Shown piece by piece: positions 4,586 to 56,873 of a stretch of DNA of 64,000 nt. The notes beneath the pieces were generated by a model. The model searched no databases and was not told the DNA's origin. It saw only the letters and a program-made list of their open reading frames with translations. Every line of letters begins with the position of its first letter. Position 1 is the stretch's first letter. The translations under genes and the position numbers were made by a program. The stretch is from Planctomycetota bacterium (GTDB lineage: Bacteria; Planctomycetota; B15-G4; JADJEK01), in assembly GCA_044225365.1 (NCBI GenBank), contig JBGAIQ010000008.1, forward strand, positions 32,001-96,000. Reading direction: 5' to 3'.

Positions 4586-6262
4586 TCAGTTCGAAGCGAA
4601 CAACCGAATCTCGAGCCCGGGCGTCGTCGCGAATCCGTTCTTGCCGTCGGTGTCGACGATGAACGCCTGGAGGAAGAGTTCGAAACCGGCGAGCGTCGGC
4701 GTGTTCGGCAGCGCCCACGTCAATGACGTGAAGCCCCCGCCGGCCCCGGTGCCCAGCATCGAGCCGATCGGCAACACGGTGAATGCGAACGATCCCGCGA
4801 GATGGAACGGTAAGCCGGCCACCACGGTATCGGGCGGCGACGCCGCGACGTCGAGCGCAAGGATCGTCGGCGCGCCGCCGAGCGCATCGGCGATTCCGAA
4901 CGTGAACCCAGGATTGCCCAGCATCGGGGGCTCGAGCGCGACGAATCGCGGCGTGAATCCACCGCTGCCGGGTGAACCGAGGCCATACGACTGCGGAACC
5001 TTCGCGCTCTCGGAGTACAGCAGCGGACGATCGAAAGGCGCGACGCCGGCCGCCACCCGGGGGTCCGTGAGCGCGGAGAGGAACGCGACGAGATTGGCCT
5101 TCTGCGTCGGATTCAGATTGAGCGGGTGGATCACCGGATCCTGATTGAGGTGGAAGTCGCCACCGCGGTCGTAGAAGTTCACGACGTCGAGCAACGTCGC
5201 CATCTCGCCGTTGTGGAAGTAGGGACCGCGCAGCGCCACGTTGCGGAGGTTCGGCGTCTTGAACCGGCCATTGTCCCCGGGATTTCCGGTGATCGCGCCG
5301 CGCCCCAAGTCCTCGAAGATCGGGCGGACTCCGTTGTTGTGGAACGCCTGATCGGTCTGCAGCGGTCCGCCGTGACAAGGAACGCACGTCCCGGGTGTCG
5401 TGAAGAGATTGAATCCCGCGAGCTGCTGTGGAGTCAGCGCATTGGGGACGCCGGCGAGGAAGTTGTCGAACGGCGACTGATTCGAGACGAGCGAACGCTC
5501 GTAGGTCGCGATCGCCATCGCGATCCGCGACGGCGTGATCCCGGCGCTGCCGAAGGCTTCGGTGAAGAGGGCCGCGTAGGGCCGTCCGTTGATCCACAGC
5601 GAGAGCGCGGGCGGGATCACGGGGGCGAGCGCGAGAGGCGTCACGCTCGTGATCCGATTCGCGACATCGGTCCAGGTGCGGCTGACCGAACCCATCTCCA
5701 CGTCACTGACGGGCGGGCCGACGCTCTGCGACTCGAGTGCGGCGAGATTCTGCAACACCACGGCGCCCGTCAGCGGATCCGTGAACACGTTGTCCGCGCG
5801 ACCGTCCCAGAACAGTCGCGGCGCGTACGCGGCGTTGATCATCGACGGCGCCTTTCGCGGCGTCACCTGAGGTACGAGGTCGAACGGCGCCTCCTTCACG
5901 AGTGCGCCCGACGCACTGTTCTTCACGACGCCCGGCGAGCCGGTGACGTCGTCGGGAGTTCCGAACAGGGTGTCGAATCCGGGATGCGTGGCGAACGAGC
6001 TGTCCAGGATCGAGCGGGGATCCGAGCCGCCACGCGTCGGGATGTGGCACGTTCCACACGCGACGGTCCGATCGGCGGAGAGCTGCTCGTCCCAGAACAG
6101 GGTCTTTCCCAGGTTGATCTTCGCCGGCGTGATCGGGTTGCCAAGAGGCACGGGCGGAGGCGGGAGCGGTCCGGGCGGCGGCGGCGGCGGCGGCGGTGCC
6201 TGCGAGAAGGCGGTGGCGGATACGAGGGACCAAAGCAGCAGCGAGAGCGTGACACTGCGCAT
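4586..6262 (-). CDS. Di-heme cytochrome c peroxidase/MauG-family protein with the shared C-terminal domain
   Basis: Signal peptide MRSVTLSLLLW..AFS, poly-Pro linker, LGKTLFWD, two CxxCH (CGTCH, CVPCH), FWDGRA, FKTPNLRNV..GPYFHNG. Start placed at ATG 6262. Confidence 0.9.
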   Translation of the reverse strand: MRSVTLSLLLWSLVSATAFSQAPPPPPPPPGPLPPPPVPLGNPITPAKINLGKTLFWDEQLSADRTVACGTCHIPTRGGSDPRSILDSSFATHPGFDTLFGTPDDVTGSPGVVKNSASGALVKEAPFDLVPQVTPRKAPSMINAAYAPRLFWDGRADNVFTDPLTGAVVLQNLAALESQSVGPPVSDVEMGSVSRTWTDVANRITSVTPLALAPVIPPALSLWINGRPYAALFTEAFGSAGITPSRIAMAIATYERSLVSNQSPFDNFLAGVPNALTPQQLAGFNLFTTPGTCVPCHGGPLQTDQAFHNNGVRPIFEDLGRGAITGNPGDNGRFKTPNLRNVALRGPYFHNGEMATLLDVVNFYDRGGDFHLNQDPVIHPLNLNPTQKANLVAFLSALTDPRVAAGVAPFDRPLLYSESAKVPQSYGLGSPGSGGFTPRFVALEPPMLGNPGFTFGIADALGGAPTILALDVAASPPDTVVAGLPFHLAGSFAFTVLPIGSMLGTGAGGGFTSLTWALPNTPTLAGFELFLQAFIVDTDGKNGFATTPGLEIRLFASN

Positions 6263-6405
6263 GCCTGTCTCCGAGAGCGTTCGAGATGGGAGTCGTGCGA
6301 TGCGAGACCCGTCGTCGGTTTCGTCATCGCTCGGCAGTTCGTGCCGATGGCGGACTTGAAACCGCGAGGCCACGCGGGAGTGGCGTGGAAGATCGCCGGA
6401 TTCCC

Positions 6406-6441
6406 GGGAATTTCGAAGGGAATTCCGAGGGGAATTCAGAA
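6406..6441. repeat. Three tandem imperfect 12-bp repeats (GGGAATTyvGAr)
   Basis: GGGAATTTCGAA / GGGAATTCCGAG / GGGAATTCAGAA in the intergenic region upstream of the peroxidase. Confidence 0.75.
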
Positions 6442-6468
6442 GTCCCGGATCGCGAACTCGCATTCTCC

Positions 6469-7515
6469 TCAGTCGACGAGCCCGCGGATCGCCGTGAAGC
6501 GCTCGAGTTCGATGCGGGGAGTCCAATGGTCCTTCGCAGTCGGTTCCTCGCGGCAGAGATCGGTCGTCAGGTACTTCTTGTTCGAGTCCGGGAAGACCGT
6601 GGCGACGACCGCCTCACCGCCCATCGATTCGTTCACCTTCGCCGCACCGAGGAAGTTTGCGCCCGACGAGATGCCGACGGCGAGGCCGAGCCGCTTCGAG
6701 AGCTGCTGCGCCATCTGGATCGAGTCGCCGTCGTCGGCGTCGACGATCGAGTCGAGCTCCGCGAGATTCACGATCGACGGAACGAATTCGTCGGAGATGC
6801 CTTGGATGCGGTGATGGCCCACGCAATGACCCACCCGCAGGGTTGGCGAGTTCGCGGGCTCGAGAGGATGGACGCGCACCTTCCTTCCGCACCGCCGCAG
6901 ATACCTCCCCACTCCCATCACGGTTCCACCGGTGCCGACCCCCGCCACGAAGGCGTCGGCCGCGACCGAGAACGCGTCGAGCTGCGCCGCGATCTCGGGC
7001 CCGGTCGAGGTTGCGTGAGCCTCCACGTTCGCGGGGTTGTCGAATTGTCGCGGGAGGAACACGCGCTCGTTCTCCTTGGCCCACTTCTCGGCGAGTGCGA
7101 TCGCGCCGACGAAGCCTCCCTGTTCCGCGGAGACGGGGATCACGGTCGCGCCGAGGCTCTTCAGGAGGAGCACTCGCTCCTGACTCATCCAGTTCGGCAT
7201 CCAGATCCGAACGTCGCAACCGATCGCCCGCCCGAGCGCCGCGAACGCGATTCCCGTGTTCCCGCTCGAGACCTCCGCGATGGTGGTTCCACGATGCAAC
7301 TCACCGCGGAGGAGCGCCCGGTGCAGGATGAATGCCGCCATCCGGTCCTTCGTGCTCCCCGTCATGTTCTCCTGCTCGTACTTCGCGAAGACTCGCCGCG
7401 GACGACCATCGATTCGGTAGTCGATCCGCAGCAGCGGCGTGGAGCCGATGAGCGGCAGCACGCCATCGAGCAGTTCAGTCGCTCGCGATGCGCGGAGTTC
7501 TTCGAGCTTGGACAT
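6469..7515 (-). CDS. cysK: PLP-dependent cysteine synthase family protein
   Basis: IGSTPL, KYE..N.TGSTKDR (PLP lysine), SSGNTG, QFDNPAN, GVGTGGT, HRIQGI, GISSGAN, FPDS..KY. Confidence 0.88.
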   Translation of the reverse strand: MSKLEELRASRATELLDGVLPLIGSTPLLRIDYRIDGRPRRVFAKYEQENMTGSTKDRMAAFILHRALLRGELHRGTTIAEVSSGNTGIAFAALGRAIGCDVRIWMPNWMSQERVLLLKSLGATVIPVSAEQGGFVGAIALAEKWAKENERVFLPRQFDNPANVEAHATSTGPEIAAQLDAFSVAADAFVAGVGTGGTVMGVGRYLRRCGRKVRVHPLEPANSPTLRVGHCVGHHRIQGISDEFVPSIVNLAELDSIVDADDGDSIQMAQQLSKRLGLAVGISSGANFLGAAKVNESMGGEAVVATVFPDSNKKYLTTDLCREEPTAKDHWTPRIELERFTAIRGLVD

Positions 7516-36370: not shown

Positions 36371-37729
36371 ATGAAGACGCCCCTCTCCCGACTCCCCGTC
36401 CTCGTTGCAGTGGCAACCGCGCTCGCGGGTGCAACCCTCTGCGTCCCATCGGCCCTTGCCGGTTCGTCCTGGCAGCCCGTCACCTCGGCGACCGCCCTCA
36501 GCGCGCACTCGGCGAGCGCTTCGGCCTACGACGAGGTCAGCGGCAAGATGATCCTCTTCGGTGGCTACGACGACACGAGCTACCTCAACGACACGTGGGC
36601 GTTCGACGGCCTCACGTGGACCAAGCTGAACACCACGGGATCGCCGTCCCCCCGAGCGGCCTCGCGCATGGCGTACGACTCCGTCGCGAAGAAGCTCGTG
36701 CTCTTCGGCGGTTTCAACGGCAGCGCCTACCTCGGGGACACCTGGATCTTCGACGGTGCGAACAACACCTGGACCCAGGCGAGCCCGGGCGTATCGCCGA
36801 AGGCCGTCACCGCGCCGATGATGTTCACCGATCCCGTGAACGGCCATGCGGTGGTCTACGGCGGCTACGACGGCCACTTCTACCAGTTGACCACCTACCG
36901 CTGGACGGGAACGACCTGGCAGAACCTGAATCCCGCGACGTCGCCGTGGGCGCGCTCCGCCGGAGCGGTCGCGCTGAATCCCGTGACGCACAAGGTCGTG
37001 CTCTTCGGCGGCCTCGGCAGCGTCAACCCCTGGAACACTTGGGAATGGAACGGCACCAATTGGGCGCAGCTCAATCCGGCCCAACAACCCGATCTCCGCT
37101 ACGACTCCGCGGCGGCGTACGACCCGCACTTCGGCGGCGTGGTGCTCTTCGGCGGTGGCTCGGGCGGTCAGCAGATCGACGACACCTGGCTGTGGAACGG
37201 CACGAACTGGACGCCGATCACCACGAACTCGACGCCCGGGCCGCGCGAGAGCTTCGGCATGGCGTTCGTCCCGGCTCTCAACCACATCGTGATCGCGGGC
37301 GGTGAGGACTCGTCGCAGATCTTCAGCGACACTTGGACCTTCCTCGATCCCGGCACGTTCACGACGATCGGCAACGGAACGGGCGGCGCACTCGGACCGC
37401 CGCACGTCTTCGCGAGCGGCGATCTGACGCCGGGCAGTCTGCTCGGCGCGAAGTTCGACTTCATCAACACGCAGCCGAACGCCCCGGGCGTGATCTTCCT
37501 CGGCACCACGCAGGTGTCCTTGCCCTTCGACGGCGGCTTCCTCTACACATTGCCGATCCAGTTCGCGCTCCCGATCGCGACCAACGCGCAAGGCAAGCTC
37601 TCGCTGACCGCGCCGATCCCGGTCGGCGTCCCGTCGGGAGCGAGCTTCATCCTGCAGGGCTGGTTCCAGGACAACACGTCGATCTTCCACGTCGGCAGCA
37701 CGAACGGCATCCTGGCCACCGTGCCCTGA
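36371..37729 (+). CDS. Secreted Kelch-repeat beta-propeller with the shared C-terminal domain
   Basis: Signal peptide; six (M/A)AYD..LFGG..DTW.(W/F)DG..W repeats. Confidence 0.9.
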   Translation: MKTPLSRLPVLVAVATALAGATLCVPSALAGSSWQPVTSATALSAHSASASAYDEVSGKMILFGGYDDTSYLNDTWAFDGLTWTKLNTTGSPSPRAASRMAYDSVAKKLVLFGGFNGSAYLGDTWIFDGANNTWTQASPGVSPKAVTAPMMFTDPVNGHAVVYGGYDGHFYQLTTYRWTGTTWQNLNPATSPWARSAGAVALNPVTHKVVLFGGLGSVNPWNTWEWNGTNWAQLNPAQQPDLRYDSAAAYDPHFGGVVLFGGGSGGQQIDDTWLWNGTNWTPITTNSTPGPRESFGMAFVPALNHIVIAGGEDSSQIFSDTWTFLDPGTFTTIGNGTGGALGPPHVFASGDLTPGSLLGAKFDFINTQPNAPGVIFLGTTQVSLPFDGGFLYTLPIQFALPIATNAQGKLSLTAPIPVGVPSGASFILQGWFQDNTSIFHVGSTNGILATVP

Positions 37730-41830: not shown

Positions 41831-44161
41831 ATGCGAAAACGAATCTTCCTCCCGGCGAGCCCCCTCGTCGTCGTGGCCCTTGCCGTCTCGCTGCAAGCTC
41901 GCACCCAGCAGCCCGCGACCGCGAGCAGCGTCCCGACGGAGGTGCAGCTCCCTGGAACGCAGCCGGGAGAGATCGATCCGCTCGCCACCGCGCAGTCGTG
42001 CCAGGTGTGCCATGCGAACTACGACAAGGACGTGGAGCCGTTCCATGACTGGTCGGGAAGCATGATGGCGCACGCGGCGCGCGATCCGGTGTTCTGGGCC
42101 ACGCTCGCCGTCGCGCAGCAGGACTATCCCGGAGCCGGCGACTTCTGCATCCGTTGCCACACTCCGAATGGTTGGCTCGACGGCCGCTCGACGCCCAACA
42201 ACGGATCGGCCCTGAATGCGACGGCCGACAGCGACGGCGTCACCTGTGCGGCCTGTCACAAGCTCACGAATCCCGACCAGTCCGAATGGGTCGGCATGCA
42301 GAACGCGCCGTACCTCGCGCACGACAAGAAGACTCCGAAGACGGGCTTCTACGGCAGCGGGATGTACGTCATGTGGCCCGGCTACGACCTGCTCGGTCCC
42401 TTCCTCGACTCCCCGGCCTACCATCTCGCGCAACAGTCCCAATACCATCGTTCGGCGCAGCTCTGCGGCACGTGCCACGACGTCTCGAATCCCGTGACGG
42501 GCGACCTCGCCCCGAACAACGGCGCATTCACGCCCCTGCTACCCGGCACCTTCAACGGCCAACCCGGCGGCGCGGTGTCGACGAAGGCCGCGTTCAACAA
42601 CTACCCGCACGCGTACGGCGTCGTCGAGCGCACCTACAGCGAACATCAATCGTCCGGCTTCAAGGATCTCCGCGTCTCCGACTTCGACCAGTTGCCGCAG
42701 GAGATGCGACAAGGCTCGATCCGCGATGCCTACGAGGCGGCGATGAAGTCGACGAAGACGGGCGACTACGAGGACGGCACGCCTCGCACCTACACCTGCC
42801 AGTCCTGCCACATGCCGCCAACGCAGGGATTCGCCGATGCGCTCGGCGTCGGTCCGAAGCGCCTGGACATCGCACGCCACTCGCTCGTGGGCGGGAACTA
42901 CTGGACGCCACTCGCGATCGCGAACCTCGACAGTCAGAACAAGCTGACCTTTGGCGGTGGCCTCGCCAGCGATCAGCTCGAAGGGCTCAGCGATGGCGCC
43001 GTGCGCGCGAAGCACAATCTCGAGCGCGCCGCTGCTCTCTCGGTCTCTGGCAATCAGCTCGAGGTCACGAACCTGACCGGCCACAAGTTGATCTCGGGTT
43101 ATCCCGAGGGTCGCCGCATGTGGCTGCACACCCGCTGGTACGACGTCAACGGCAACCTGCTGCGCGAAGACGGAGCCTACGGTGATCTCGCCGTCACGGT
43201 GAACGGGCAAGCGACGACGGTTCGCACGATCCTCGATCTCTTCGATCCGAACACCCGGATCTACGAAGCGCAGCCGGGCATCTCTCAAGCGTTCGCCGCG
43301 AAGCTCCTCGCGCTCGGCAAGAGCCCGACCCTGCCCGTGGCTTTCGACCGAGTGACGGGCAACGTGACGGCGACGCTCGCCGACGTCGGCAACGGCGCGC
43401 CAGGGACCGCGCACCCGACTTTCCACTTCGCGCTCAACGACACGATCCTCTCCGACAATCGGATCCCGCCCTATGCGTTCTCGCGGAAAGAAGCGTCGAA
43501 GCGCAATGCGCTCCCGGTTCCCGCGAGCCAGTACGGCGATCCACCGGCCGACGGAACCTATCGCTGCTACGACGACATCCCGCTGCATCCGCCGACGAAT
43601 GCCGCGTTCGCGAAGATCGATCTCCTCTATCAGCCGACGAGTTGGGAGTACATCCAGTTCCTTCTGCAGTCCAACACGGGACAGGATGCGTTCCTCGCGA
43701 ACACCGGCAGCGATCTCTACACGGCATGGCGACAGACGGGGATGGCGGAGCCGCACGTGATGGCGTCCGCGACCTGGTCGAGCGCGACCTTCCCGTGGGC
43801 CGATCTCGGCAACGCGGTCGTCGGCAAGGACGGCGCGCCCCGCGCCTACGGCTACGGCTCGCTCGCGCCGCGCACTCCGCTCGCGATCGACCTCGAGAAC
43901 GGCGCGCCGAACGCGCCGGCGTTCCTCGTCATCGGCCTGTCCGCCGCGAATCACTCGTTCTACAGCGGAACGCTGGTGCCCGCGCCCGATCTCGTGCTGC
44001 CGCTTCCACCGCTCGATGCGACGGGCAAGCTGCATCTCGTCGGCAAGTGGCCCGCGGCCGTGCCCTCGCAGTTCGCGATGTACGCACAGTTCGTCCTCGC
44101 CGATGACGCGGCGCAGGGCGGTGTGGCGCTCTCCAACGCGCTGCGCGCTACGTCCCCCTGA
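41831..44161 (+). CDS. Secreted pentaheme c-type cytochrome with the shared C-terminal domain
   Basis: Five CxxCH (CQVCH, CIRCH, CAACH, CGTCH, CQSCH), W.GSMMAHAARDP.F, N.TGHKL..GYPEGRRMW, DNRIPP. Confidence 0.9.
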   Translation: MRKRIFLPASPLVVVALAVSLQARTQQPATASSVPTEVQLPGTQPGEIDPLATAQSCQVCHANYDKDVEPFHDWSGSMMAHAARDPVFWATLAVAQQDYPGAGDFCIRCHTPNGWLDGRSTPNNGSALNATADSDGVTCAACHKLTNPDQSEWVGMQNAPYLAHDKKTPKTGFYGSGMYVMWPGYDLLGPFLDSPAYHLAQQSQYHRSAQLCGTCHDVSNPVTGDLAPNNGAFTPLLPGTFNGQPGGAVSTKAAFNNYPHAYGVVERTYSEHQSSGFKDLRVSDFDQLPQEMRQGSIRDAYEAAMKSTKTGDYEDGTPRTYTCQSCHMPPTQGFADALGVGPKRLDIARHSLVGGNYWTPLAIANLDSQNKLTFGGGLASDQLEGLSDGAVRAKHNLERAAALSVSGNQLEVTNLTGHKLISGYPEGRRMWLHTRWYDVNGNLLREDGAYGDLAVTVNGQATTVRTILDLFDPNTRIYEAQPGISQAFAAKLLALGKSPTLPVAFDRVTGNVTATLADVGNGAPGTAHPTFHFALNDTILSDNRIPPYAFSRKEASKRNALPVPASQYGDPPADGTYRCYDDIPLHPPTNAAFAKIDLLYQPTSWEYIQFLLQSNTGQDAFLANTGSDLYTAWRQTGMAEPHVMASATWSSATFPWADLGNAVVGKDGAPRAYGYGSLAPRTPLAIDLENGAPNAPAFLVIGLSAANHSFYSGTLVPAPDLVLPLPPLDATGKLHLVGKWPAAVPSQFAMYAQFVLADDAAQGGVALSNALRATSP

Positions 44162-45119: not shown

Positions 45120-45175
45120 TTCGAGCGCTCGGCCACCCTGAGGCGAACGACGCTCGCGGTGACCAGGAGTGTTCG

Positions 45176-45883: not shown

Positions 45884-45954
45884 TCGCGCGATTCGTTCCG
45901 CTTCCTTCGATTCGTCCGAAGAGTCCACCTACTCGCTTTCGGGAGTGATGAGTC

Positions 45955-46743: not shown

Positions 46744-47678
46744 TCGCGATGCTCTCCATCCTCCTCGCTCACGCCTGTCTCCACCTCGCTCTCGCGACGG
46801 ACGGTGCGTCGTCGATCCGACTCCCCGACGAGGCGACGACGCCAGGCAACCGCATCCGCCTGCGCGACCTACTCTCGGACAGCGAGGAGAAGAAGCTCGA
46901 CGTCGACCTCCTCAATCTCGACCTGGGCCGCGCGCCGTCGCCCGGCTTCGGCCGCTCGATCGATCGCCGCTTGATCGAATCGCTCGCACCGAATCTCAAG
47001 TTCGATGGCGCAACGGCGACGATCGTCCGCTCGGAGACCGTGACGATCGACTCCAAGGACATCGAGAAGGCCGCGCGCGAACTCCTCGACAAGAGCTCCC
47101 TCATTCACGAGGGAACGACGGTCGAACTCACCTTGCCCGCGCGTTCCGTCGAAGTCGCGAAGGGCCGCGACTCGCGCAAGCTCGTCCCGAAGCTCCGTGG
47201 CGCGCCCACCTGCCGTGGACCGGTATCGATCCAGATCGACATCGAAGTCGACGGTCAGCTCGTCCGCACGGCGCAGGTCGGATACATGCTCCGCACGAAA
47301 GACAAGATCGCCGTTCTGAAGTGCGATCTGCCGCGCGGACAAGAACTCACCGAGAATCACTTCGAACTGGTGATGCTCGACACCACGAATGTGGCGTCCG
47401 CTCAAGTCGATCCGACGCTCGTCATCGGCCAGATGGCGAAGCACGACCTGAAGGCTGGCGCTCCATTGCGCGTCGAGGACTTCGCGCCGGACGCGATCAT
47501 CCGTCGCGGCGACAACGTCCGCATCCTGTATCGCTGCGGCGGGCTCGAGCTCGAGAGTCGCGGCACCGCGAAGTCCGCGGGTGCGCTCGGCGAGTCGATC
47601 CGCGTCGAGAACGCCGATTCGAAGAAGACGATCACGGCCCGCGTCGCGGGTCCCGGGCTCGTCGTGATCCAAGGCTGA
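46740..47678 (+). CDS. flgA: Flagellar P-ring formation chaperone
   Basis: Signal peptide, SAF-like segment, IIRRGDNV..G.A..AG.LGESIRVEN.DSKK.I.ARV; position in the operon. Confidence 0.88.
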   Translation: MIAMLSILLAHACLHLALATDGASSIRLPDEATTPGNRIRLRDLLSDSEEKKLDVDLLNLDLGRAPSPGFGRSIDRRLIESLAPNLKFDGATATIVRSETVTIDSKDIEKAARELLDKSSLIHEGTTVELTLPARSVEVAKGRDSRKLVPKLRGAPTCRGPVSIQIDIEVDGQLVRTAQVGYMLRTKDKIAVLKCDLPRGQELTENHFELVMLDTTNVASAQVDPTLVIGQMAKHDLKAGAPLRVEDFAPDAIIRRGDNVRILYRCGGLELESRGTAKSAGALGESIRVENADSKKTITARVAGPGLVVIQG

Positions 47679-47744
47679 CCCGTCATGGATCTCCGCACCG
47701 TTCGCTCCAAGAACTCCCCCGCTGAAACCGGAAACGAGACCGTG

Positions 47745-48419
47745 ATGCAAGGCAGATCGCACACCATCCAGAACGCCAGGACGACCGCGCTCCTCGCCGG
47801 CGCCTTCCTCGTGCTCGCGTCCACCGCGCGCGCCGACTCCTTGTGGCAGCGCGGAAAGGCGAACCCCGTTTCGCTGGTCTCCGACAACCGCGCGCGACGA
47901 ATCGGTGACATCGTCACGATCGTGATCGACGAGAAGCAGAAGGTGAAGAACGGCGAGAACATGAAGACGCAGAAGACGTCGAGCGCCGACGGATCGCTCG
48001 TCTTCACTCCTGCGGAGAAGCTCGTCCACGAGGCGAATCAGCTCGAGGGGATCGACGACGCCGAGAATCCGCTCGACTCGCTCCTCCCGATCTCGCTGAC
48101 GTCGCAGCGCGACTTCGAGGGCAAGGCGGACTTCAACAAGGAAGGGTCGTTCACGACCCGCATCACCTCGGTCGTCATCGACGTCCAACCGAACGGCAAC
48201 CTCGTCGTCGAGGGCAAGCGCCGCGTCGTCATCGACGGCGAAGAGAAGTGGATGACGATCACCGGGCTCGTGCGCAGCTTCGACGTGAGCTCGGACAACA
48301 ACGTCGCCTCGGCGCTCGTCGCCAACGCGCAGGTCCAGTACAGCTCCGACGGTCCCCTCGCGAAGAACACTTCACGCGGCTGGCTCGATCGCTTCATCGA
48401 TTTCATCTGGCCGTTCTGA
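47745..48419 (+). CDS. flgH: Flagellar L-ring protein
   Basis: DSLW, DNRARRIGDIVTI.IDE, V.DVQPNGNLVVEG, G.VR..D....N.V.S, GWL.RF....WPF. Confidence 0.93.
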   Translation: MQGRSHTIQNARTTALLAGAFLVLASTARADSLWQRGKANPVSLVSDNRARRIGDIVTIVIDEKQKVKNGENMKTQKTSSADGSLVFTPAEKLVHEANQLEGIDDAENPLDSLLPISLTSQRDFEGKADFNKEGSFTTRITSVVIDVQPNGNLVVEGKRRVVIDGEEKWMTITGLVRSFDVSSDNNVASALVANAQVQYSSDGPLAKNTSRGWLDRFIDFIWPF

Positions 48420-48428
48420 GGGATCGCG

Positions 48429-49571
48429 ATGCTGCTCCTCCTCCCCATCCTCACCGCGTTCCTCGCGCAGGTCCCCGCCCCGCCCGCGGACGCGGCCCGC
48501 GCGCCTTCCGGTCTCGTTCGAGACGTCGTTCCCGGCCCCGGCCTGACCCGGATCGGCGACGTCACGCACATCAAGGGCATGCGGAACAACGACCTCTTCG
48601 GCACGGGCATCGTCGTCGGTCTCAACAACACCGGAGACTCGTCGAAGGTCACGCGCCGGGCGGTAGCGAACCTGCTCGCGAAGCAGAACATCCAGGTCTC
48701 GCCACAGGACGTCAAGGACGGGGCCGCGGCCCTCGTCATGGTGACGGCAAAGCTCCCGCCGTTCATGAAGGAAGGCGACACGATCGACATCACCGTCTCG
48801 ACGCTCGGCGACGCACAGAGTCTGTTCGGCGGCACACTGCTCCCCACTCAACTCGCAGGCGTCGATGGCAACGTCTGGGCGAACGCACAGGGTGCGGTCA
48901 CGGTCGGCGGGTTCTCGGCCTCTGGCAGTTCCGCGAGCGTCAACCAGAACCATCCGACCGTCGGCCTGATCCGCAACGGAGCCACGGTCGAAGAAGAGCT
49001 TCCGGCACACATCGTCGAGAACGGCACCTTCGAGCTTCGCCTCGCCGATCCCGATTTCGAGACCGCGCGCCGCATCGCCGACTCGATCAACGAACTCGCG
49101 AAGGACTCCGCTTCGACGGTGGATCCCGCCGCCGTCACGGTGAAGATCCCGTCGCAACTCAGCACCAAGGAACAGACGGGTTTCATCGCCGCCGTCAACG
49201 AACTGCTCGTTCGCCCGCACAGTCGAGCGCGCATCATCGTGAACGAGAAGAGCGGAACGATCGTCGCGGGAGAGAGCGTGCGCATCGGTCGCTGCGCGAT
49301 CGCCCACGGCAACCTGACCGTCACCATCTCCGAATCCCCTGCCGTCTCGCAACCCGGCCCGCTCTCCAATGGCACGACGACCACCGTGCCGCGAACCGAC
49401 CTCAAGACCGAGTCGGAGGCGAGCGGTCTCTCCGTGATGCCCGAGACCACGACGATCGGCGAACTCGCGTCCGCGCTCAACGCGCTCGGCGCAACTCCGC
49501 GCGATCTGATCTCGATCCTCCAGGCGATGTCGTCGGCCGGTGCCCTGCACGCCGAATTGGAGGTCCGATGA
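48429..49571 (+). CDS. flgI: Flagellar P-ring protein
   Basis: RIGDV..G.R.N.L.G.GIVVGL..TGD, AALVMVTA.LPPF, GDA.SL.GGTL, ARIIVNEKSGTIV, LNALGATPRDLISILQ. Confidence 0.96.
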   Translation: MLLLLPILTAFLAQVPAPPADAARAPSGLVRDVVPGPGLTRIGDVTHIKGMRNNDLFGTGIVVGLNNTGDSSKVTRRAVANLLAKQNIQVSPQDVKDGAAALVMVTAKLPPFMKEGDTIDITVSTLGDAQSLFGGTLLPTQLAGVDGNVWANAQGAVTVGGFSASGSSASVNQNHPTVGLIRNGATVEEELPAHIVENGTFELRLADPDFETARRIADSINELAKDSASTVDPAAVTVKIPSQLSTKEQTGFIAAVNELLVRPHSRARIIVNEKSGTIVAGESVRIGRCAIAHGNLTVTISESPAVSQPGPLSNGTTTTVPRTDLKTESEASGLSVMPETTTIGELASALNALGATPRDLISILQAMSSAGALHAELEVR

Positions 49572-50188
49572 ACGTCGACACGATCTCTCGCGCCGCATCG
49601 CCCGCGGACGGTCGGCCCGATGCCGGCACGGCCGTCTCGCAGTCGTCGCGACGTCCGCAAGCCGTCCCGGCGAGCGTGTTCGACTCGATCAACTCCGCGA
49701 AGCTCGACGGCGCGATGAACCGCGCGCACGGCGTGCCGACGTGGAAGAAGCCCCTCGACGAGAAGCTCGTCTCCGCGGCACGCTCCCTCGCGGATGCGAA
49801 GGTCGATATCGAAGGAAAGAAGGTCTCCGCCGCGACGAAGAAGCAGCACGAAGTGAAGGAGGCTGCGAACCGCCCCGACATCCAGAAGGTCGCGACGGAC
49901 TTCTCGAGCCTTCTCGTGCAGCAACTCGTTCGCGAGATGTTCGAGACCGTGAAGGAAGGCGAGGGACCGTTCGGCGAAGGACCTGGCAACGACATCTCGC
50001 GAGGCATCGCCGAGACCTCGTTCTCGCAATCACTCGCGGAGAGCGGCATGGCGTCGCTGAAGGACGCGATCGCACGCGCGATCGGCGAACACGCTCCTCC
50101 GGCCGCTGACACCCCGACTGCGCCCGCACCCTCCGACTTCGCCCCGCTCGTGACGCCGCAAATTTCCACGAAGGAGACCTCGCGATGA
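49568..50188 (+). CDS. flgJ: FlgJ-like rod-binding protein without a muramidase domain
   Basis: KVATDFSSLLVQQLVREMFETV....FG rod-binding pattern; ATGA overlaps with flgI and flgN. Confidence 0.72.
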   Translation: MNVDTISRAASPADGRPDAGTAVSQSSRRPQAVPASVFDSINSAKLDGAMNRAHGVPTWKKPLDEKLVSAARSLADAKVDIEGKKVSAATKKQHEVKEAANRPDIQKVATDFSSLLVQQLVREMFETVKEGEGPFGEGPGNDISRGIAETSFSQSLAESGMASLKDAIARAIGEHAPPAADTPTAPAPSDFAPLVTPQISTKETSR

Positions 50189-50673
50189 AACCGCTCACCC
50201 GTTGCTGCGACGAGCTGCGGCGCCGCCTCCTCGCGGCCATCGAGGTCGAGAGTTCCCTCGCCGGCAAGCTACGCGAGCACGAACACGCCTTGATGCATGG
50301 CGAAGTCGAGCGGATCCTCTCGCTCAACGCCGAACTCGACACCTATCTCGGCACGCTGCGCGAAGTCGCCGTCTCGCTCCAGGAGTCCGCGATCCAACTC
50401 GCCGAACTCCTGAACCTCCCGAGCCGGACGCCGCTGAAGGAATCCCTCGTGCGGCTTCCGCCTCACGAACGCGACGAACTCATCGCGCTGCGACAACGAC
50501 TCCTGCTCTCGCGGCGGGCGGCGCAGAACGCTTCCGACAAGAACGCGCAGATCGCTCGCGCCTCGCTCGACGCGATCCAAGGCATGCGCGAACTGCTGGG
50601 ACAGCCGCTGAGCGAAGCCGGCGCCGTTGCCGAACCCGCGGGGATCTCGGGCCGCCTGGACGCGGAAGCGTGA
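50185..50673 (+). CDS. flgN: Flagellar export chaperone FlgN
   Basis: All-helical, 162 aa, EHALMHGEVE pattern, immediately before flgK. Confidence 0.7.
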   Translation: MKPLTRCCDELRRRLLAAIEVESSLAGKLREHEHALMHGEVERILSLNAELDTYLGTLREVAVSLQESAIQLAELLNLPSRTPLKESLVRLPPHERDELIALRQRLLLSRRAAQNASDKNAQIARASLDAIQGMRELLGQPLSEAGAVAEPAGISGRLDAEA

Positions 50674-50683
50674 GGAGCTAGCG

Positions 50684-53005
50684 ATGGCCCTTGGAATGTC
50701 GATCGGCATCCGTGCTCTCCTCTCGGCCAAGACCGTGATGGAGATCATTGGACACAACCTCGCGAACCAGAACACGCCGGGATACTCGCGTCAGGTGGGC
50801 CTCTTGCTCACGACCGATCCCGTGAATGGACCGAAGAACATCCCGCTCGGTACCGGCGTCGTCGTCGACGACATCTATTCCGTGCGCAACGAGTCCCTCC
50901 TCTCGCGCATTCGCTCCGAGAGAGCAACCTCGGGGCGTGCCGAGACCGAATCGGGAATGCTCGAGCAGATGGAGTCGATCCTCGGCGACCTGACCGACAA
51001 CAGCATCGCGACGAAGATGCAGGCCCTCTTCGATTCGGCCGACGCGGCTGCCGCGAAGCCCGAGGACCAGGTGCTTCGTCAGAACCTGCTGTCGTCCGTC
51101 TCCGAACTCTCGCTCAACTTCCGCCTCCGGACCGCCGGAATCCAGGATCAACGAACGACGAGTCTCCTCGCCGCGCAGTCGCTCGTCACCGACGCCAACG
51201 CCAAGCTCCAGCGCGTTGCCGAGCTCAACACCAAGATCTCGAGTCAGGTGGCGATCGGAGTCACTCCGAACGACCTCCTCGATCAGCGCACGGTCCTGCT
51301 CGAAGGCCTCGCCGAATCGCTCGGCGCGAGTTCGCTCCCGCTGAAGGACGGAACGGTCGCGGTCTCCGTCAACGGCGTGACGCTCGTCTCCGGTTCCACG
51401 TCGGCGAACATCAAGAGCTCGATGGACGGTGCCGGCAAGATCCACCTGACGTCGGGCAAGGGCGGACTCGAGATCGACGCCTCGCACGGCAAGATCGGCG
51501 CCCTCGTTCAGATGACCGCGAGCTACATGCCGGATCGCATCGCCGATCTCGACAAGATGGCGCGCTCGCTCATCCTCAACATGAATCGCATCCACTCGCG
51601 CGGCGTCGCGTCGAGCGGTCCGTTCTCGCAGTTGAAATCGAACTACGAGGTGACGCTCGCGAACGGCCAGAATCCGCTGGCCGAGAAGCTCAAGGATCTC
51701 GGCCTTCCCTTCGACATGAAGAAGGGCACGCTCTCGATCGCGGTGACCGACAAGGCGACGGGCAACGTGACCCGCTCCGACGTCGCGGTCGATCCGTCGA
51801 CGATGACGCTCCAGGACTTCATCGACTCGATCGACGCCGTTCCCCACATGAGCGCGTTCGTCGATGGCGCCGGCAAGCTCACCCTGAAAGCGGGCTCCGG
51901 CTACGGCTTCGACTTCTCGCAGCGCCTCGATCCGATTCCGGTCGAAGGCGGCACCTTCGGCGCCAAGAACGCGGTCGTGGTCGGCGACGACTTCCCCGCT
52001 GCCCTCAGCAATGGCTCGACGATGCAGATCGCCGTCGACGGCGGCGCACCGCAAACCGTCACGTTCAACTCGGCGAACTTCGCGAACATCGCAGCGGCGA
52101 CGCCCGAAGAGGTCGCGGCGGAGATCAACTCGCAGGTACCCGGCGCGACGGCGAGCGTCGTCGACGGCAAACTCGTGGTGGCCTCGAACACCGAAGGTGC
52201 GAGTTCCTCGATCCAGATCACCGATGGCACGGGATCACCGGCCTCGGCGATGGGACTCGCGCTCGCGGGCACGGGAACGGATACCGGCGTGGCGGTCGAG
52301 ATCACCGGCTCGAGCGCGACGGCGGGCCCCGACACCTTCACCTTCAAGCCGACCGGCGACGGGCAGATCGGTGTCACTCCGAATCTCGGCCTCGAGGTCT
52401 ACAACTCGAAGGGCACGCTCATCACGACCCTGCCGATCGGCGACGGCTACGAGCCGGGCTCGCCGCTCGAGATCGTCCCGGGTGTGAACGTGAAGCTCGG
52501 CCCGGGCACGATCCAGGGCAGCTCCGGTCAGTTCTTCGAGCTCGAGGTTCCCGGCGACACCGACACCGCCGACGTCCTCCCCGCCTTCGGTCTCAACGCA
52601 CTGCTCGAGGGCAAGGACTCCTCGACGATCGAGCTCGCAACGCAACTGAAGGACAACCCGTCGCTCGTCGCGGGCGCTGCGTTCGGAGGCCCCGGCGACG
52701 GCGGCACGTTCCTCCAACTCGCGGGACTCGCGACGCAACCGCTCGACGAACTCGACGGCGCCTCGGTCCTTCACTCCTACAACTCGTTCGCCGCGGAGGT
52801 CGGGTCCACTTCGGCGGGCGCGAAGGAGTCGGTGAAGTCGAGCGCGCTCGTCCTGCTCACGCTCGAGAGTCAGCGCTCCAACGAGTCGGGAGTCAATCCG
52901 GACGAGGAACTCCTGAATCTGACCCGCTACCAGAATGCCTATCAGAGCGCGGGCAAGTACCTCTCGATCATGACCGAACTGAATCAGGTCCTGCTCCAAC
53001 TCTGA
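50684..53005 (+). CDS. flgK: Flagellar hook-associated protein 1 with a large central insertion
   Basis: GHNLANQNTPGYSRQ, GTGV, NDLLDQR, SGVNPDEELLNL..YQNAYQ. Confidence 0.94.
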   Translation: MALGMSIGIRALLSAKTVMEIIGHNLANQNTPGYSRQVGLLLTTDPVNGPKNIPLGTGVVVDDIYSVRNESLLSRIRSERATSGRAETESGMLEQMESILGDLTDNSIATKMQALFDSADAAAAKPEDQVLRQNLLSSVSELSLNFRLRTAGIQDQRTTSLLAAQSLVTDANAKLQRVAELNTKISSQVAIGVTPNDLLDQRTVLLEGLAESLGASSLPLKDGTVAVSVNGVTLVSGSTSANIKSSMDGAGKIHLTSGKGGLEIDASHGKIGALVQMTASYMPDRIADLDKMARSLILNMNRIHSRGVASSGPFSQLKSNYEVTLANGQNPLAEKLKDLGLPFDMKKGTLSIAVTDKATGNVTRSDVAVDPSTMTLQDFIDSIDAVPHMSAFVDGAGKLTLKAGSGYGFDFSQRLDPIPVEGGTFGAKNAVVVGDDFPAALSNGSTMQIAVDGGAPQTVTFNSANFANIAAATPEEVAAEINSQVPGATASVVDGKLVVASNTEGASSSIQITDGTGSPASAMGLALAGTGTDTGVAVEITGSSATAGPDTFTFKPTGDGQIGVTPNLGLEVYNSKGTLITTLPIGDGYEPGSPLEIVPGVNVKLGPGTIQGSSGQFFELEVPGDTDTADVLPAFGLNALLEGKDSSTIELATQLKDNPSLVAGAAFGGPGDGGTFLQLAGLATQPLDELDGASVLHSYNSFAAEVGSTSAGAKESVKSSALVLLTLESQRSNESGVNPDEELLNLTRYQNAYQSAGKYLSIMTELNQVLLQL

Positions 53006-53022
53006 CCCCGTAAGGACCGAAC

Positions 53023-54489
53023 ATGCCGTTTCGCATCACGCCGCAGTCGATCTACGCGCGATCGTTGTACGACATGACGAACAGCTTCGGCCGTCTCGCC
53101 GATGCCGAGGTCGCGATCTCCAGCACGAAGCGCATCCGAGTTTTCTCCGACGACGCGTCGGGTGCATCGCGCGCTCTCGATCTTCGAACCGTCATCCAGC
53201 GAACGATCCAATCGCGAAGTTCGATCGACGACGGACAGCGCGCCGCCGATACGCAGGCCGAAGTCCTCAACTCCGCCTCCGACCTGATCGCGCAGGCCCG
53301 AGCTCTCGGCGAGAGTGGTGCGTCCGACGGCAAGACCGACAGCGACCTGAAGTCCCTCGCAACCGAGGTCGACTCGATCCTCGATCAGCTCGTCGCGAGC
53401 GCGAACCAACGGGTCGAAGGCCGGTACCTGTTCGCAGGCAGCAAGACCGAGACCAAGCCTTTCAATGTCACCCGCTCGTTCGGCAAGGTGACCGCGGTCT
53501 CGTACGCGGGCGACGACATCGTCCGCCGCGTCCGACTCGGTCCCGGCGAGGAGAAGGAGATCGAGCTCTCCGGCTCCCAGGCCTTCCTCCACAATTCGCG
53601 CGAGACCACGGTCCTCGTCGGCGGCACCGGACTCGCCGGAACGCCGGTCGCGCAAGACACGATGATCGGGAACGCGACGATCCTGATCGCCCACACCTCG
53701 AGCGTGTTCGGCGACGGTCTGCTCGCCGGCGGTGACAGCGTCTCCGGGCTCAAGCTCGGGACGAGTACGGCCCTCGACACGATCGTCGGCGCGGCGGGCC
53801 AGCACAAGATCACGATCGCTTCCGACGGGAGCGGTGGACGAACGATCCGACTCGACGACGGCGACCCGGTCGCGTTCACCGGCACGGAGACGGATCTCGC
53901 GCTCACGAGCGAAGGCAGCGACACCGTGCATGTCGACCTCACTTCACTGTCGAGCACGTTCACGGGGAGCATCGATCTCACCGGCAACGGAACGATCCAG
54001 GTGAAGGGCGGCCCGAGTCAGGCGCTGACGTTCCAGAGCGATTTCGTGCTGCAGGACAAGAACGGCCGCGTGGTCCATCTCGACACCACGCACTTGGTGC
54101 ACGGCGGCGAGACCTTCGCCGTCTTCCCCGGAACGGAATCGATCTTCGATGCGATGATCGGACTCCGCGACGAACTCGAAGGCGCCACCGGGCTCGATCC
54201 CGATCAGCAGGTCGCGCGCATCCAGGCGCGACTCGCCGCCATCGACGGAGCGCACTCCGGCGTGCTCGCGGGACTCTCGACGCTCGGAGCGCGCAGCGCA
54301 TCGTTCCAGCGCGTCTCGGGATCGCTCGACTTCTTCGAACTGCAGCTCGAGGACAAGCGCGGGGAACTCGAGGACACCGACGTCTTCAAGGCATCGATCC
54401 AGCTCACCGAATCCCAGAGCGCCTACAGCGCCGCGCTCCAAGCGACCGCCAAGATCTCGGGCGGGCCGACGCTCCTGAACTACCTCTGA
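53023..54489 (+). CDS. flgL: Flagellar hook-associated protein 3
   Basis: FRIT, ISSTKRI...SDD, AN....GRYLFAG, LGAR, ELEDTD, AY.AALQ..TLLNYL. Confidence 0.93.
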   Translation: MPFRITPQSIYARSLYDMTNSFGRLADAEVAISSTKRIRVFSDDASGASRALDLRTVIQRTIQSRSSIDDGQRAADTQAEVLNSASDLIAQARALGESGASDGKTDSDLKSLATEVDSILDQLVASANQRVEGRYLFAGSKTETKPFNVTRSFGKVTAVSYAGDDIVRRVRLGPGEEKEIELSGSQAFLHNSRETTVLVGGTGLAGTPVAQDTMIGNATILIAHTSSVFGDGLLAGGDSVSGLKLGTSTALDTIVGAAGQHKITIASDGSGGRTIRLDDGDPVAFTGTETDLALTSEGSDTVHVDLTSLSSTFTGSIDLTGNGTIQVKGGPSQALTFQSDFVLQDKNGRVVHLDTTHLVHGGETFAVFPGTESIFDAMIGLRDELEGATGLDPDQQVARIQARLAAIDGAHSGVLAGLSTLGARSASFQRVSGSLDFFELQLEDKRGELEDTDVFKASIQLTESQSAYSAALQATAKISGGPTLLNYL

Positions 54490-54775: not shown

Positions 54776-55747
54776 ATGAAGTCGTTCCTGCTCGCCACGC
54801 TCGGACTCGGTCTTTCCCTCGGTGTCGCCTCGGCGCGAGCGGGCGTCGTCTTCAGCTACCCGCCGAGTCCCTCCGGCGGGATCGTCAGCTCGTCCTGGGT
54901 CGACCCGGACGGAAGCGACTCCGACATGTATGCCTACGACGACTTCACGCTCGCCGCGACCGCCGCGATCACCGAGGTACGCTGGCGCGGCGGCTACGGC
55001 CTCAATGCGCCGTTCGGAAACGTGTTCGATTTCACGATCCACTTCTACGAGTCGATCGCCGGCGGTTCCCAACCGCACGTCACGAACCCCGAGTTGCCCG
55101 AGATCTACCTCGCGTACTACCACGTCGGGAACAACGCCGGCGAGACGCCGGCCGGCGTGTTCGGCGGCTCGATGATGTACGACTACCACTACTCGCTCCC
55201 GATGCCCTTCGTCGCGCAGGCGGGCGTGAAGTACTGGATCAAGATCGAGGCCTCGCAACCCGGCTATCCCGACTGGGGCACTTCGGTCGGCACCGGCGGC
55301 AACGGTTACCACTTCCGCTACAGCACCGGCCTCGCGATGTTCCAGAACGTCCCCTCCGACACCTGCTTCACCCTGATCTCGGCATGGCAGGACCTCGGTT
55401 CCGGCAAGCCTGGAGTGAACGGCGTGCCGAAGCTCATCGGCTCGGGCAGCCTCTCGTCGAACTTCACCGGGTCCTTGACGCTCACCAACGCGAAGTCGAA
55501 GGCGCAGGCGATCGGCGTCGTCGGTCTCTCCGCGATCAACGCTCCGTTCCTCGGCGGCCTGATCGTCCCCGCGCCGGACATCCTCTTCACCGTGACGACG
55601 ACGAACAGCGGAACCTTCGCGCTCCCGTACACCATGCCCGCAAACGTGCCGGCCGGCGTCGCCATTTACATGCAGTATTTCATCACGGACCCCGCTGCGA
55701 CGTTCGGCCGCTCGGCGAGCAACGCCGTCGTCGGCACCACGTATTGA
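54776..55747 (+). CDS. Secreted beta-sandwich protein with the shared C-terminal domain
   Basis: GAGGAG RBS, signal peptide ending ARA, AYDDFTL....ITEVRWRG..F.I.FY..G.KYWI.I. Confidence 0.85.
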   Translation: MKSFLLATLGLGLSLGVASARAGVVFSYPPSPSGGIVSSSWVDPDGSDSDMYAYDDFTLAATAAITEVRWRGGYGLNAPFGNVFDFTIHFYESIAGGSQPHVTNPELPEIYLAYYHVGNNAGETPAGVFGGSMMYDYHYSLPMPFVAQAGVKYWIKIEASQPGYPDWGTSVGTGGNGYHFRYSTGLAMFQNVPSDTCFTLISAWQDLGSGKPGVNGVPKLIGSGSLSSNFTGSLTLTNAKSKAQAIGVVGLSAINAPFLGGLIVPAPDILFTVTTTNSGTFALPYTMPANVPAGVAIYMQYFITDPAATFGRSASNAVVGTTY

Positions 55748-55776
55748 GCCCGCGTCGTCACCCGGACTCGGGATGC

Positions 55777-55819
55777 AACACTCGGGGGGAGCGACGGGAT
55801 GCCGCTCCCCCCGAGTGTT
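55777..55819. terminator. Perfect 17-bp inverted repeat between convergent genes
   Basis: AACACTCGGGGGGAGCG-N9-CGCTCCCCCCGAGTGTT. Confidence 0.75.
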
Positions 55820-55865
55820 CGTTATGGCGCCCCCGATCTGAGAAGCCGGGGGTGTGGAGATTCGG

Positions 55866-56873
55866 TCAGGAGTGACCGCCGCAGTAGTAGCACGGAGGCG
55901 GCGTCTGACCCTCGGGGGAGTTCGGGTCGACGTCGTCGGGCTGCGGTTCGTTCTCGGGAACGCCATGGAGTTCGACGAGGTTCGCGGCCGGGAACAGATT
56001 CGAGGAGACCGGGATGAACGCATCGACGAAGATCCCGGGCGTCACGAGCGTGAAGTCGACGGGGTTGTTGTCGTGCGTGAACACGGTCGAGTTCGAGACG
56101 AAGACCGACACGCCGAGCATGTCGAAGCCCGACACGCCGACGCCGCCGACCATGCCGTAGAGGCGGATCGTTCCCTGCGCGTTCTTCTTCTGGATCTTGA
56201 TCGCGTCGAAGCCGCCGGTCGTGTTCGCCGCGCCATCGATGCTCACCCACTGCCCGACGTTGATCGAGGACAGATTCGAGAAGCCGTTGAGCGTGGTCGT
56301 CGGGAGGACGTCGAACGTGACGGCGCCGACCGAGATCGAGTTCGTCGTGACGTTGCTGACGGGAGCGATCACCGCCGCCGTCGCGCCCGCGCCCGAGCTC
56401 AACTTCAGCGGAGCGGAGAGGAACGGGACGACCGTGACCTGCGTCGCACCCGAGAGTCGATAGTGCGTCGCCGTCGTCGCATCGGCGAGCACGGCCTGGA
56501 GCGTGAACGAGGTGCCCACGGGCAGCGAGTCCAGCGAGTGCGGCGGGAGGTAGATCGTCGTGCTACCGCTCGCTCCGACCGAACCCTGGAGCATGAAGTA
56601 AGGCAGATCGAGGCGCACGTGCAGGGTGCCGAGGCCGACGACCTGGATACCCGGGTCGAACACGCCGGCGAGGAGCATGTACGACGCGTTCGGCTTGCCC
56701 GCGATGTCGAGGATGTTCGGGTCGAGTTGACCGAGGCTCGCGGTCAGCGGGAAGGCGCCGACGCTGTTCTGATCGACGACGAGCGACGCCGACGGCGTGT
56801 TGATGGCTTGACCGAAGGCAGCCGACGTGACGAGGAGACTGGCAGCGAGGATTCGCAGAGAGACTTTGCGCAT
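55866..56873 (-). CDS. Secreted protein: N-terminal copy of the shared domain + two DUF5666-like OB modules
   Basis: Signal peptide ending AFG, two repeats (G.V..V....F.V.G..V.V...T.F..L..G..V.V.G), C-terminal CYYCGGH. Confidence 0.8.
   Translation of the reverse strand: MRKVSLRILAASLLVTSAAFGQAINTPSASLVVDQNSVGAFPLTASLGQLDPNILDIAGKPNASYMLLAGVFDPGIQVVGLGTLHVRLDLPYFMLQGSVGASGSTTIYLPPHSLDSLPVGTSFTLQAVLADATTATHYRLSGATQVTVVPFLSAPLKLSSGAGATAAVIAPVSNVTTNSISVGAVTFDVLPTTTLNGFSNLSSINVGQWVSIDGAANTTGGFDAIKIQKKNAQGTIRLYGMVGGVGVSGFDMLGVSVFVSNSTVFTHDNNPVDFTLVTPGIFVDAFIPVSSNLFPAANLVELHGVPENEPQPDDVDPNSPEGQTPPPCYYCGGHS

Follow-up and report, generated by a model that had tools for sequence, protein, structure and literature searches.

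An undescribed, mostly C-terminal domain on about 180 proteins of a planctomycete: a candidate docking or anchoring handle of the cell envelope

We analysed a 64,000-nucleotide stretch of contig JBGAIQ010000008.1 of a Planctomycetota bacterium (the window; all window positions below refer to the whole stretch), in which five genes encode exported proteins with unrelated cargo that share a domain of about 120 residues. The domain belongs to a family that is undescribed in the Pfam and NCBIfam libraries and in the literature searched. It is found once per protein, nearly always at the C-terminus, on a wide variety of cargo, and in orthologous proteins it shares its slot with known anchors. We propose, at a probability of about one half, that the domain is a common docking or anchoring handle at the cell envelope, a role predicted from the way in which the domain is deployed.

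Four of the window proteins carry the domain at the C-terminus. The first is an exported di-haem cytochrome c peroxidase/MauG-like protein (4586..6265, minus strand; 559 aa from the Met at 6265) with a readable signal-peptide-like start and PF03150 over residues 47-272 (Pfam, E 9.6e-38); its domain copy (4586..4990, minus strand) covers residues 426-551 and is followed by 8 residues and the stop. The second, an exported Kelch beta-propeller protein (36371..37729, plus strand; 452 aa; signal peptide; PF24681 at E 3.9e-35 in addition to other Kelch families), has the domain at residues 333-447 (37355..37729, plus strand). It is followed by an exported multihaem c-type cytochrome with weak likeness to MtrC/OmcA (41831..44161, plus strand; 776 aa; PF22113 at E 4.4e-6 and PF14522 at E 1.1e-5), where the domain occupies residues 659-772 (43790..44161, plus strand), and by an exported DUF7901 protein (54776..55747, plus strand; 323 aa; PF25470 at E 1.2e-8), where it occupies residues 207-318 (55379..55747, plus strand). 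To avoid circularity, we scored these copies with a profile built from 97 copies located elsewhere in the genome, with zero window sequences, against the 56,090 open reading frames (ORFs) of the genome. All four were recovered, with E of 5.5e-12 for the peroxidase (profile positions 1-115; this copy has an insertion relative to the others), 3.5e-16 for the Kelch protein, 1.8e-24 for the cytochrome and 3.1e-26 for the DUF7901 protein.

The fifth protein, an exported DUF5666 protein (55866..56873, minus strand; 335 aa; PF18914 over residues 171-227, E 4.7e-10), has a domain-like segment immediately after the signal peptide (56439..56765, minus strand; envelope residues 37-145). This segment was not reported when the independent profile was scored against the 56,090 ORFs. 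Scored alone, it reached 18.0 bits, with an E of 1.7e-7 for the single sequence that corresponds to about 0.01 over the full ORF set; it matched profile positions 35-113 only and lacked the Gly-rich opening. No orthologues of the protein were detected at E ≤ 1e-10 in 30 related genomes. The segment is probably a divergent, partial member of the family, and the search of the genome with the profile found no further copies in the window beyond the proteins named.

The domain had been proposed by an earlier sequence-only reading of the window, which described five signal-peptide proteins with unrelated cargo. Indeed, all five ORFs lie where that reading placed them and all have signal-peptide-like N-termini. 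The strings Q-x4-D-x9-[ST]-[NPG]-[AG] are present in all five. The four C-terminal copies also have the Gly-rich opening, and their chains stop 6 to 9 residues past the motif. The five segments can be aligned with the Q and the D invariant, and neither Pfam nor NCBIfam matched anything over the shared ~120 residues. The claim of a common domain thus stands for the four C-terminal copies and in a weaker, partial form for the fifth.

We searched all stop-to-stop ORFs of the genome, a 6.53-Mb assembly that is 94% complete, with an iterated profile until it converged. The domain was found in 180 ORFs, each with one copy and none with two. In 140 of them at most 5 residues separate its end from the stop, in 29 the distance is 6-15 and in three 16-40 residues, and the remaining eight copies are N-terminal or internal. 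Four of these eight copies are strong (E 1.4e-32 to 1.7e-20) and lie directly after the signal peptide; in two of them (L042 and L043) the order is signal peptide, domain, FG-GAP propeller, so the module also works at the other end of its usual cargo. By a crude rule, 151 of the 180 carriers have a signal-peptide-like start, and several of those that failed the rule are cut by contig ends or have starts that the rule missed. The sequence-only reading had anticipated tens to hundreds of copies, mostly C-terminal (169 of the 180 lie within 15 residues of the stop) and nearly all on proteins with signal peptides, and the census bears it out on each of these points.

The cargo is diverse. Among 108 carriers scanned by Pfam (5 + 75 + 28), 35 have FG-GAP/VCBS propellers and 29 match no Pfam family at the thresholds used. 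The enzymes include M23, S8 and M10 peptidases, a beta-lactamase, a metallo-beta-lactamase fold, a PQQ dehydrogenase, a PETase-like hydrolase and a nuclease/phosphatase; other cargo comprises two multihaem cytochromes, Kelch, WD40, PD40, SBBP/DUF7948, beta-helix, CHRD, LTD, NHL and TIG domains and several DUFs. Cargo families that NCBIfam ties to PEP-CTERM also occur in carriers: the HAF repeat (three carriers), a ScyF-like NHL protein and a TIGR03118-like protein.

The distribution of the domain is bimodal. All 31 genomes of the order carry it, with 11 to at least 147 matches each, as do all 30 of those genomes of the class (which equals one order) that are at least 85% complete. An evenly drawn sample of the phylum contained 54 carriers among its 251 genomes. 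By family the pattern is all-or-none (for example f1 5/5, f3 7/7, f9 7/7 and f15 5/5 versus f8 0/13, f16 0/14, f25 0/8 and f28 0/9), and where the domain is present its copies are numerous. One genome, G258, has a single match on a short contig, which may be contamination. A search of 1.84 billion cluster representatives with the profile gave 21,948 proteins at E ≤ 1e-3, of which 8,882 remain at E ≤ 1e-10; the best 150 of these public representatives are all single-copy, and 146 of the 150 end with the domain within 6 residues of the C-terminus. In the ESM Atlas 30 of 30 neighbours are unnamed and mostly from Planctomycetota, a homologue search among longer proteins gave 13 matches without informative names, and a related-locus search with one protein returned a single locus, in a metagenome-assembled genome labelled Phycisphaeraceae. 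A hypothetical protein of Engelhardtia mirabilis (P0247) carries the domain (E 1.6e-29), so the Saltatorellus clade has a carrier in culture. Two high-GC genomes of family f57 (G192 and G221), otherwise without the domain family, have a weaker match (E about 1e-12) in one protein each (L060:8978-12091 and L061:8971-12678, both minus strand; 1,037 and 1,235 aa). These matches lie mid-protein and are not terminal tags; they could represent an older, non-terminal relative.

We could not assign the domain to a named family. In Pfam no family was matched by more than one of 102 copies, even at E ≤ 1; NCBIfam at E ≤ 1e-4 had nothing over the domain in 68 other carriers; and a profile search of PDB sequences returned antibody light chains only (E ≥ 0.0019). 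By these searches the domain does not match the curated models of named accessory immunoglobulin (Ig)-like modules (PKD, Big, TIG, FN3, CARDB, PPC, MG2). This agrees with the sequence-only reading, which knew of no named family and held the domain to be neither a PEP-CTERM tag, for it has no hydrophobic helix or basic tail, nor a C-terminal domain (CTD) of the type IX secretion system (T9SS), whose models gave no match. We predicted the structure of one of the five window copies, that of the DUF7901 protein, with AlphaFold2. The model (pLDDT 96.6, pTM 0.88) is all-beta with 11 strands, and according to it the domain is an autonomous Ig-like beta-sandwich of about 120 residues. Foldseek found no match to it at E ≤ 0.001, and the best VIA rows were macroglobulin and Ig-like domains with Z of 8.0-8.5, the tool's usual range for a common sandwich.

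The sequences of the copies have several further properties. Cysteines at profile columns 7 and 58/59 are both present in 75 of the 180 copies, one alone in 8 and neither in 97. This covarying pair, found in about 40% of copies, appears to brace the domain as a predicted disulfide; the covariation fits a disulfide and an oxidising compartment. The five window copies belong to the Cys-free set. Together, the signal-peptide starts and the co-occurring cysteines make the domain look extracytoplasmic. Asp, Glu, Lys and Arg make up 5.9% of the domain versus 15.0% of the cargo parts of the same proteins, Gly, Leu and Pro are enriched, and aromatic residues amount to 7.4%. In the genome's copies we saw no low-complexity linker or conserved cleavage motif N-terminal to the domain. 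The last strand is followed by 2-15 residues, mostly 3-5; the last 3-6 are unconserved and show no terminal Arg/Lys cluster.

Evidence that bears on function comes from what orthologues carry in the same slot. We took the cargo parts of the DUF7901 protein and of the cytochrome and compared the C-termini of the 120 best homologues of each. For the DUF7901 cargo, the domain is at the end in 50 of the 120. In two others (P0187 and P0189) the terminal module is a T9SS type A domain, at 33.1 and 25.7 bits (cut-off 23), with P0170 just below; P0267 ends in a GC-type dockerin at 29.6 bits (cut-off 29), with P0254, P0264 and P0228 below the cut-off; roughly a dozen more have dockerin-like Asp/Asn loops at the end, as judged by eye; and P0224 has a PEP-CTERM-like tail. 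Other homologues end in PKD domains or with the cargo itself. The DUF7901 cargo is weakly like the NCBIfam 'choice-of-anchor R' family (NF041539), which 22 of 70 domain-less homologues matched at E of 1.6e-4 to 1e-2, all below the cut-off.

The cytochrome cargo gave a similar picture. Of 8,000 candidates scored, 5,939 were homologues at E ≤ 1e-10, and among the 120 best the domain is at the end in 39 and no tail is present in 19. Another 12 end in two divergent subfamilies (P0298, P0299, P0315, P0360, P0363, P0377 and P0399; P0323, P0368, P0371, P0373 and P0388) which hhalign linked to the domain at 95.7% and 95.2%. The profile missed these at E ≤ 1e-4, so that the 21,948 representatives are an undercount of the superfamily. 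Eleven homologues end, by eye, in a Cys-Gly, hydrophobic, Arg-rich tail after acidic double-disulfide repeats; NCBIfam made no call on these tails, which we take to resemble MYXO-CTERM. About four end in dockerin-type tails (PF00404 is precomputed for P0337 and P0379), and 13 have in this place an MG2-like Ig domain, for which hhalign gave no relationship to the domain studied here (0.5%); the remainder have TIG, Calx-beta or cysteine-rich tails. The domain thus shares its slot with known anchors in orthologous proteins, and this equivalence favours a sorting or anchoring role. The sequence-only reading had proposed an export or attachment tag, and its interpretation is supported in part; the eight non-C-terminal copies speak against a strictly C-terminal export signal.

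A parallel was seen at the level of whole genomes. All five genomes of family f44 (G069, G094, G164, G194 and G236; 2.9-3.6 Mb, 1-20 contigs, 98-100% complete) have 75-223 first-look candidates for the GC-type dockerin (NF041540) each, and none has the domain; genomes that carry the domain have at most one weak GC-type dockerin match. Planctomycete lineages have therefore each multiplied a different terminal module on similar exported proteins.

A sorting or anchoring role best explains these observations, because it accounts both for the deployment of the domain and for its interchangeability with T9SS tails, dockerins and membrane-anchor tails. The lineage fuses the domain once per protein, nearly always as the last element, to about 180 unrelated Sec-exported proteins. 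In the mechanism that we infer, these would leave the cytoplasm by Sec and would then probably cross the outer membrane by a general route for folded proteins. A receptor of the envelope or surface, shared by all carriers, would then be bound by the domain, and the cargo would be kept on the cell. The genome has thirteen secretin (PF00263) genes (for example L075-L080; C103, C73, C95, C41, C76 and C51), so channels for folded proteins are plentiful. Flagellar L and P rings imply an outer membrane, and the genes for both rings in the window fit an envelope that has one.

Several results weigh against the docking or anchoring proposal. In orthologues the slot can also be filled by ordinary Ig-like modules (PKD, TIG and MG2-like), and it therefore gives no proof of anchoring. 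Several of the families among the cargo are classic periplasmic ones (M23, beta-lactamase, di-haem peroxidase, PQQ dehydrogenase and TolB-like), so that the surface would be only a candidate location. The searches made did not identify a receptor or export machinery, and full-text searches of the literature found no description of the domain; the matched passages of PMC11032199 and of a preprint (10.1101/817700) on the Saltatorellus clade do not mention it, and the preprint lacks the strings 'C-terminal', 'secret' and 'FG-GAP'. Exosortase (PF09721), considered as a partner or as a replaced system, occurs in 108 of 251 genomes at a frequency unrelated to the domain (22 of 54 carriers, 86 of 197 non-carriers). 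Secretins are found in 249 of 251 genomes, with 9 to at least 13 genes in the same family, 3-10 in other carriers and 0-12 in non-carriers, and by eye their copy number does not visibly separate carriers from non-carriers; most other sampled Planctomycetota have 4-8.

The neighbourhoods of carrier genes likewise count against it, as they are enriched only for a Ser/Thr kinase family and not for envelope proteins. This family has 34 members, mostly of about 800-1,050 aa (six gene calls are shorter) and with long C-terminal regions, of which 13 lie within two genes of a carrier versus a background of 12% (binomial p about 9e-5). One of them (57005-60010 of the window, plus strand) adjoins the DUF5666 gene. 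The adjacency suggests regulation rather than export, and carriers may be under kinase-linked control. A 9-member family of proteins of about 200 aa shows the same tendency (4 of 9 near carriers).

In a more specific version of the proposal, the domain would serve as the address label for a sorting system, so far undescribed, of Saltatorellus-type and other uncultured Planctomycetota, in which a dedicated outer-membrane receptor, translocon or sortase-like enzyme would recognise the uncharged sandwich. We regard this as a tentative extension that may well go too far. A crude screen for C-terminal beta-signals yielded MBOAT, HEAT/TPR and VWA proteins, and 0 of 13 scanned (of 16) matched an outer-membrane barrel family. 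The cargo of Slam (type 11 secretion) carries an 8-stranded barrel; Slam/DUF560 (PF04575) had no match in the genome, and no control genome matched either.

One serious rival is that the domain has no dedicated partner and is an accessory module of the ordinary Ig-like kind, spread in these lineages by domain shuffling as a stabilising cap, a spacer or a binder of an external ligand such as a glycan, particle or mineral surface. It has to be taken seriously because ordinary Ig-like domains fill the same slot (Calx-beta domains are there too) and no partner was found in the T9SS, neighbourhood, exosortase or secretin searches. The generic Ig/macroglobulin-like fold of the model, with a best VIA Z of 8.5 and no Foldseek match at E ≤ 0.001, and the ability of the domain to work at either protein end would also suit such a module. 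However, the domain is never tandem and almost never internal, unlike PKD, Big and FN3 spacers, and it is found on non-enzymatic and redox proteins as well as on hydrolases. Few aromatics combined with few charges would make an unusual surface for a soluble glycan-binding module. Nor would one expect of it 180 copies in a genome and an expansion exclusive to certain lineages, parallel to that of the GC-type dockerin, and on balance we consider this explanation rather unlikely.

A second rival is that the domain is a true secretion signal of a dedicated, as yet undescribed outer-membrane translocation system. Like the T9SS CTD, it would be recognised by a specific translocon or shuttle and then cleaved, with the cargo possibly linked covalently to a surface glycolipid. 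Much of the deployment would fit: the extreme C-terminus holds 94% of copies, each protein has one, the cargo is very diverse, genomes contain hundreds, and the phyletic pattern is all-or-none; the predicted Ig-like sandwich can be likened to the fold of the T9SS CTD, and a T9SS type A domain takes the same slot in DUF7901 orthologues. Against this, eight of the 180 carriers have the domain in an N-terminal or internal position, and in four of these the match is strong. Copies directly after the signal peptide are tolerable for a docking module but should not be for a C-terminal secretion signal, and it is because of them that we favour position-tolerant docking over a cleaved C-terminal signal. 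The missing cleavage motif and linker before the domain, and its unconserved last residues, point in the same direction, and the neighbourhoods of carrier genes gave no candidate translocon. The T9SS models TIGR04183, TIGR04189, NF033710 and NF033707, which cover SprA/Sov, PorV, PorU and the CTD, had no match in the 94%-complete genome, a result to be read with controls that were silent or below cut-off (for SprA/Sov, PorV and PorU, none of 14 control genomes reached the family cut-off). We judge a dedicated secretion signal to be improbable. That the domains instead bind one another, within or between paralogues, to build a surface coat or lattice of cargo proteins would suit their near absence of charge, their richness in Gly, Pro and Leu and the very many carriers per cell, but no repeat or lattice-forming signature was seen and self-association has no positive sign (a two-copy complex prediction scored 0.00, an outcome that, with controls not run, is evidence neither way), so that we find this idea very hard to credit.

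Should the domain prove to be an anchoring or sorting handle, it would define the surface proteome of a large section of the Planctomycetota, most of it uncultured. The shape-shifting Saltatorellus clade would be included, because a carrier is encoded by Engelhardtia mirabilis. Thousands of metagenomic proteins could then be annotated better, and an undescribed receptor or export machine would be indicated. In these bacteria roughly one gene in thirty carries the domain, as do at least 21,948 protein clusters in public data, every one of which bears the label 'hypothetical'. Were the domain an address label, about 180 proteins, or 3-4% of the proteome, would be displayed per cell, and the system would be an independently evolved planctomycete counterpart of T9SS, with the GC-type dockerin as a second solution in sister lineages. 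The bimodal phyletic pattern (54 carrier and 197 non-carrier genomes) suits phylogenetic profiling, and the cultured carrier allows experiments. New in this work are the census of the genome, the bimodal distribution, the covariation of the cysteines, the depletion of charge, the N-terminal variants and the cultured carrier, as well as the slot equivalence in two cargo families, the parallel expansion of the GC-type dockerin and the negative profiling of exosortase and secretins.

The surroundings of the carriers contain other genes of interest. In the window, a flagellar gene block (44999-54486, plus strand) has domain carriers on both sides and comprises two FlgE/F/G-type rod or hook genes, FlgA, FlgH, FlgI, FlgN, FlgK and a flagellin-N-domain protein (probably FlgL). 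From the passages matched in a preprint (10.1101/817700), it resembles the flagellar clusters of the Saltatorellus clade. Between the Kelch and cytochrome carriers lie a family 2 glycosyltransferase and a PMT_2/ArnT-like glycosyltransferase (39226-41666, plus strand), with a 431-aa protein without a Pfam family (37896-39188) 5' of the two. A 1,955-aa protein (29051-34915, minus strand) with two UvrA interaction, two UvrA DNA-binding and ABC ATPase domains is roughly double the normal length of UvrA and has the appearance of a tandem fusion. At the start of the window (13-3405, plus strand) is a tricorn-type protease of 1,131 aa with PD40, Tricorn C1, PDZ and S41 domains and a signal-peptide-like start, which has two paralogues in the genome. 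Elsewhere in the genome (C97:27588-31344, minus strand), the gene of a 434-aa carrier shares 4 bases with the start of that of a 347-aa membrane protein, next to which is an MBOAT O-acyltransferase; these genes could form a polysaccharide-acylation operon with a tagged component. The genome has five MBOAT paralogues, and a second one (C31:10268-11782) lies between two carriers, although overall the adjacency of MBOAT genes and carriers is non-significant (2 of 5, p 0.11).

How does the domain compare with known systems? The results do not support placing it in the T9SS CTD, dockerin or PEP-CTERM families or in any Ig-like family that has a name. Like the tags of the PEP-CTERM/exosortase, MYXO-CTERM and GlyGly-CTERM systems, it is lineage-restricted, C-terminal and placed on many exported proteins, and such tails occur in the same slot in orthologues of its cargo; unlike PEP-CTERM, it lacks a transmembrane helix and a basic tail, and its distribution shows no relation to that of exosortase. 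The macroglobulin (MG) and other Ig-like domains of alpha-2-macroglobulin, complement and adhesins are its best structural matches (7s62 at Z 8.5, CD109 at Z 8.3 and C5 at Z 8.2, over 98-103 residues at about 3.0 Å), but identity is 12-16%, Z is in a range common for unrelated sandwiches, and MG domains form internal arrays rather than single modules at a terminus.

Docking by dockerins and by the T9SS CTD is the model for the mechanism that we propose, although the domain is related to neither. The T9SS CTD (TIGR04183/PF18962, Bacteroidota) is likewise terminal, present in single copy on unrelated Sec-exported cargo, found at tens to hundreds per genome and confined to a lineage. It is a folded Ig-like beta-sandwich of about 100 residues; the predicted structure of our domain is an Ig-like sandwich too, a generic feature, and the absence of T9SS CTD structures from the structure-match rows shown excludes nothing. 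The two differ in that PF18962 matches 0 of 102 domain copies at E ≤ 1 and hhalign against three CTD-type tails gave 0.4%, and in that our domain is longer (11 strands), often has a Cys pair, has almost no charge and is non-C-terminal in 8 of 180 carriers. The NCBIfam library search itself works, because its T9SS type A model detects P0187 and P0189 above cut-off. Dockerins differ in being built of calcium-loop (EF-hand-like) repeats of about 60-70 residues, as opposed to a predicted 120-residue beta-sandwich; neither PF00404 nor NF041540 matched in the carriers or domain copies scanned, and we know of no cohesin-like receptor here. The likeness to dockerins lies in the use of a terminal module on many unrelated exported proteins, and in both cargo families the two modules take the same slot. 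Dockerins are mostly C-terminal but tolerate other positions. In the GC-type dockerin (NF041540) the likeness extends to a massive expansion, that in f44, and in the genomes sampled the two expansions are mutually exclusive.

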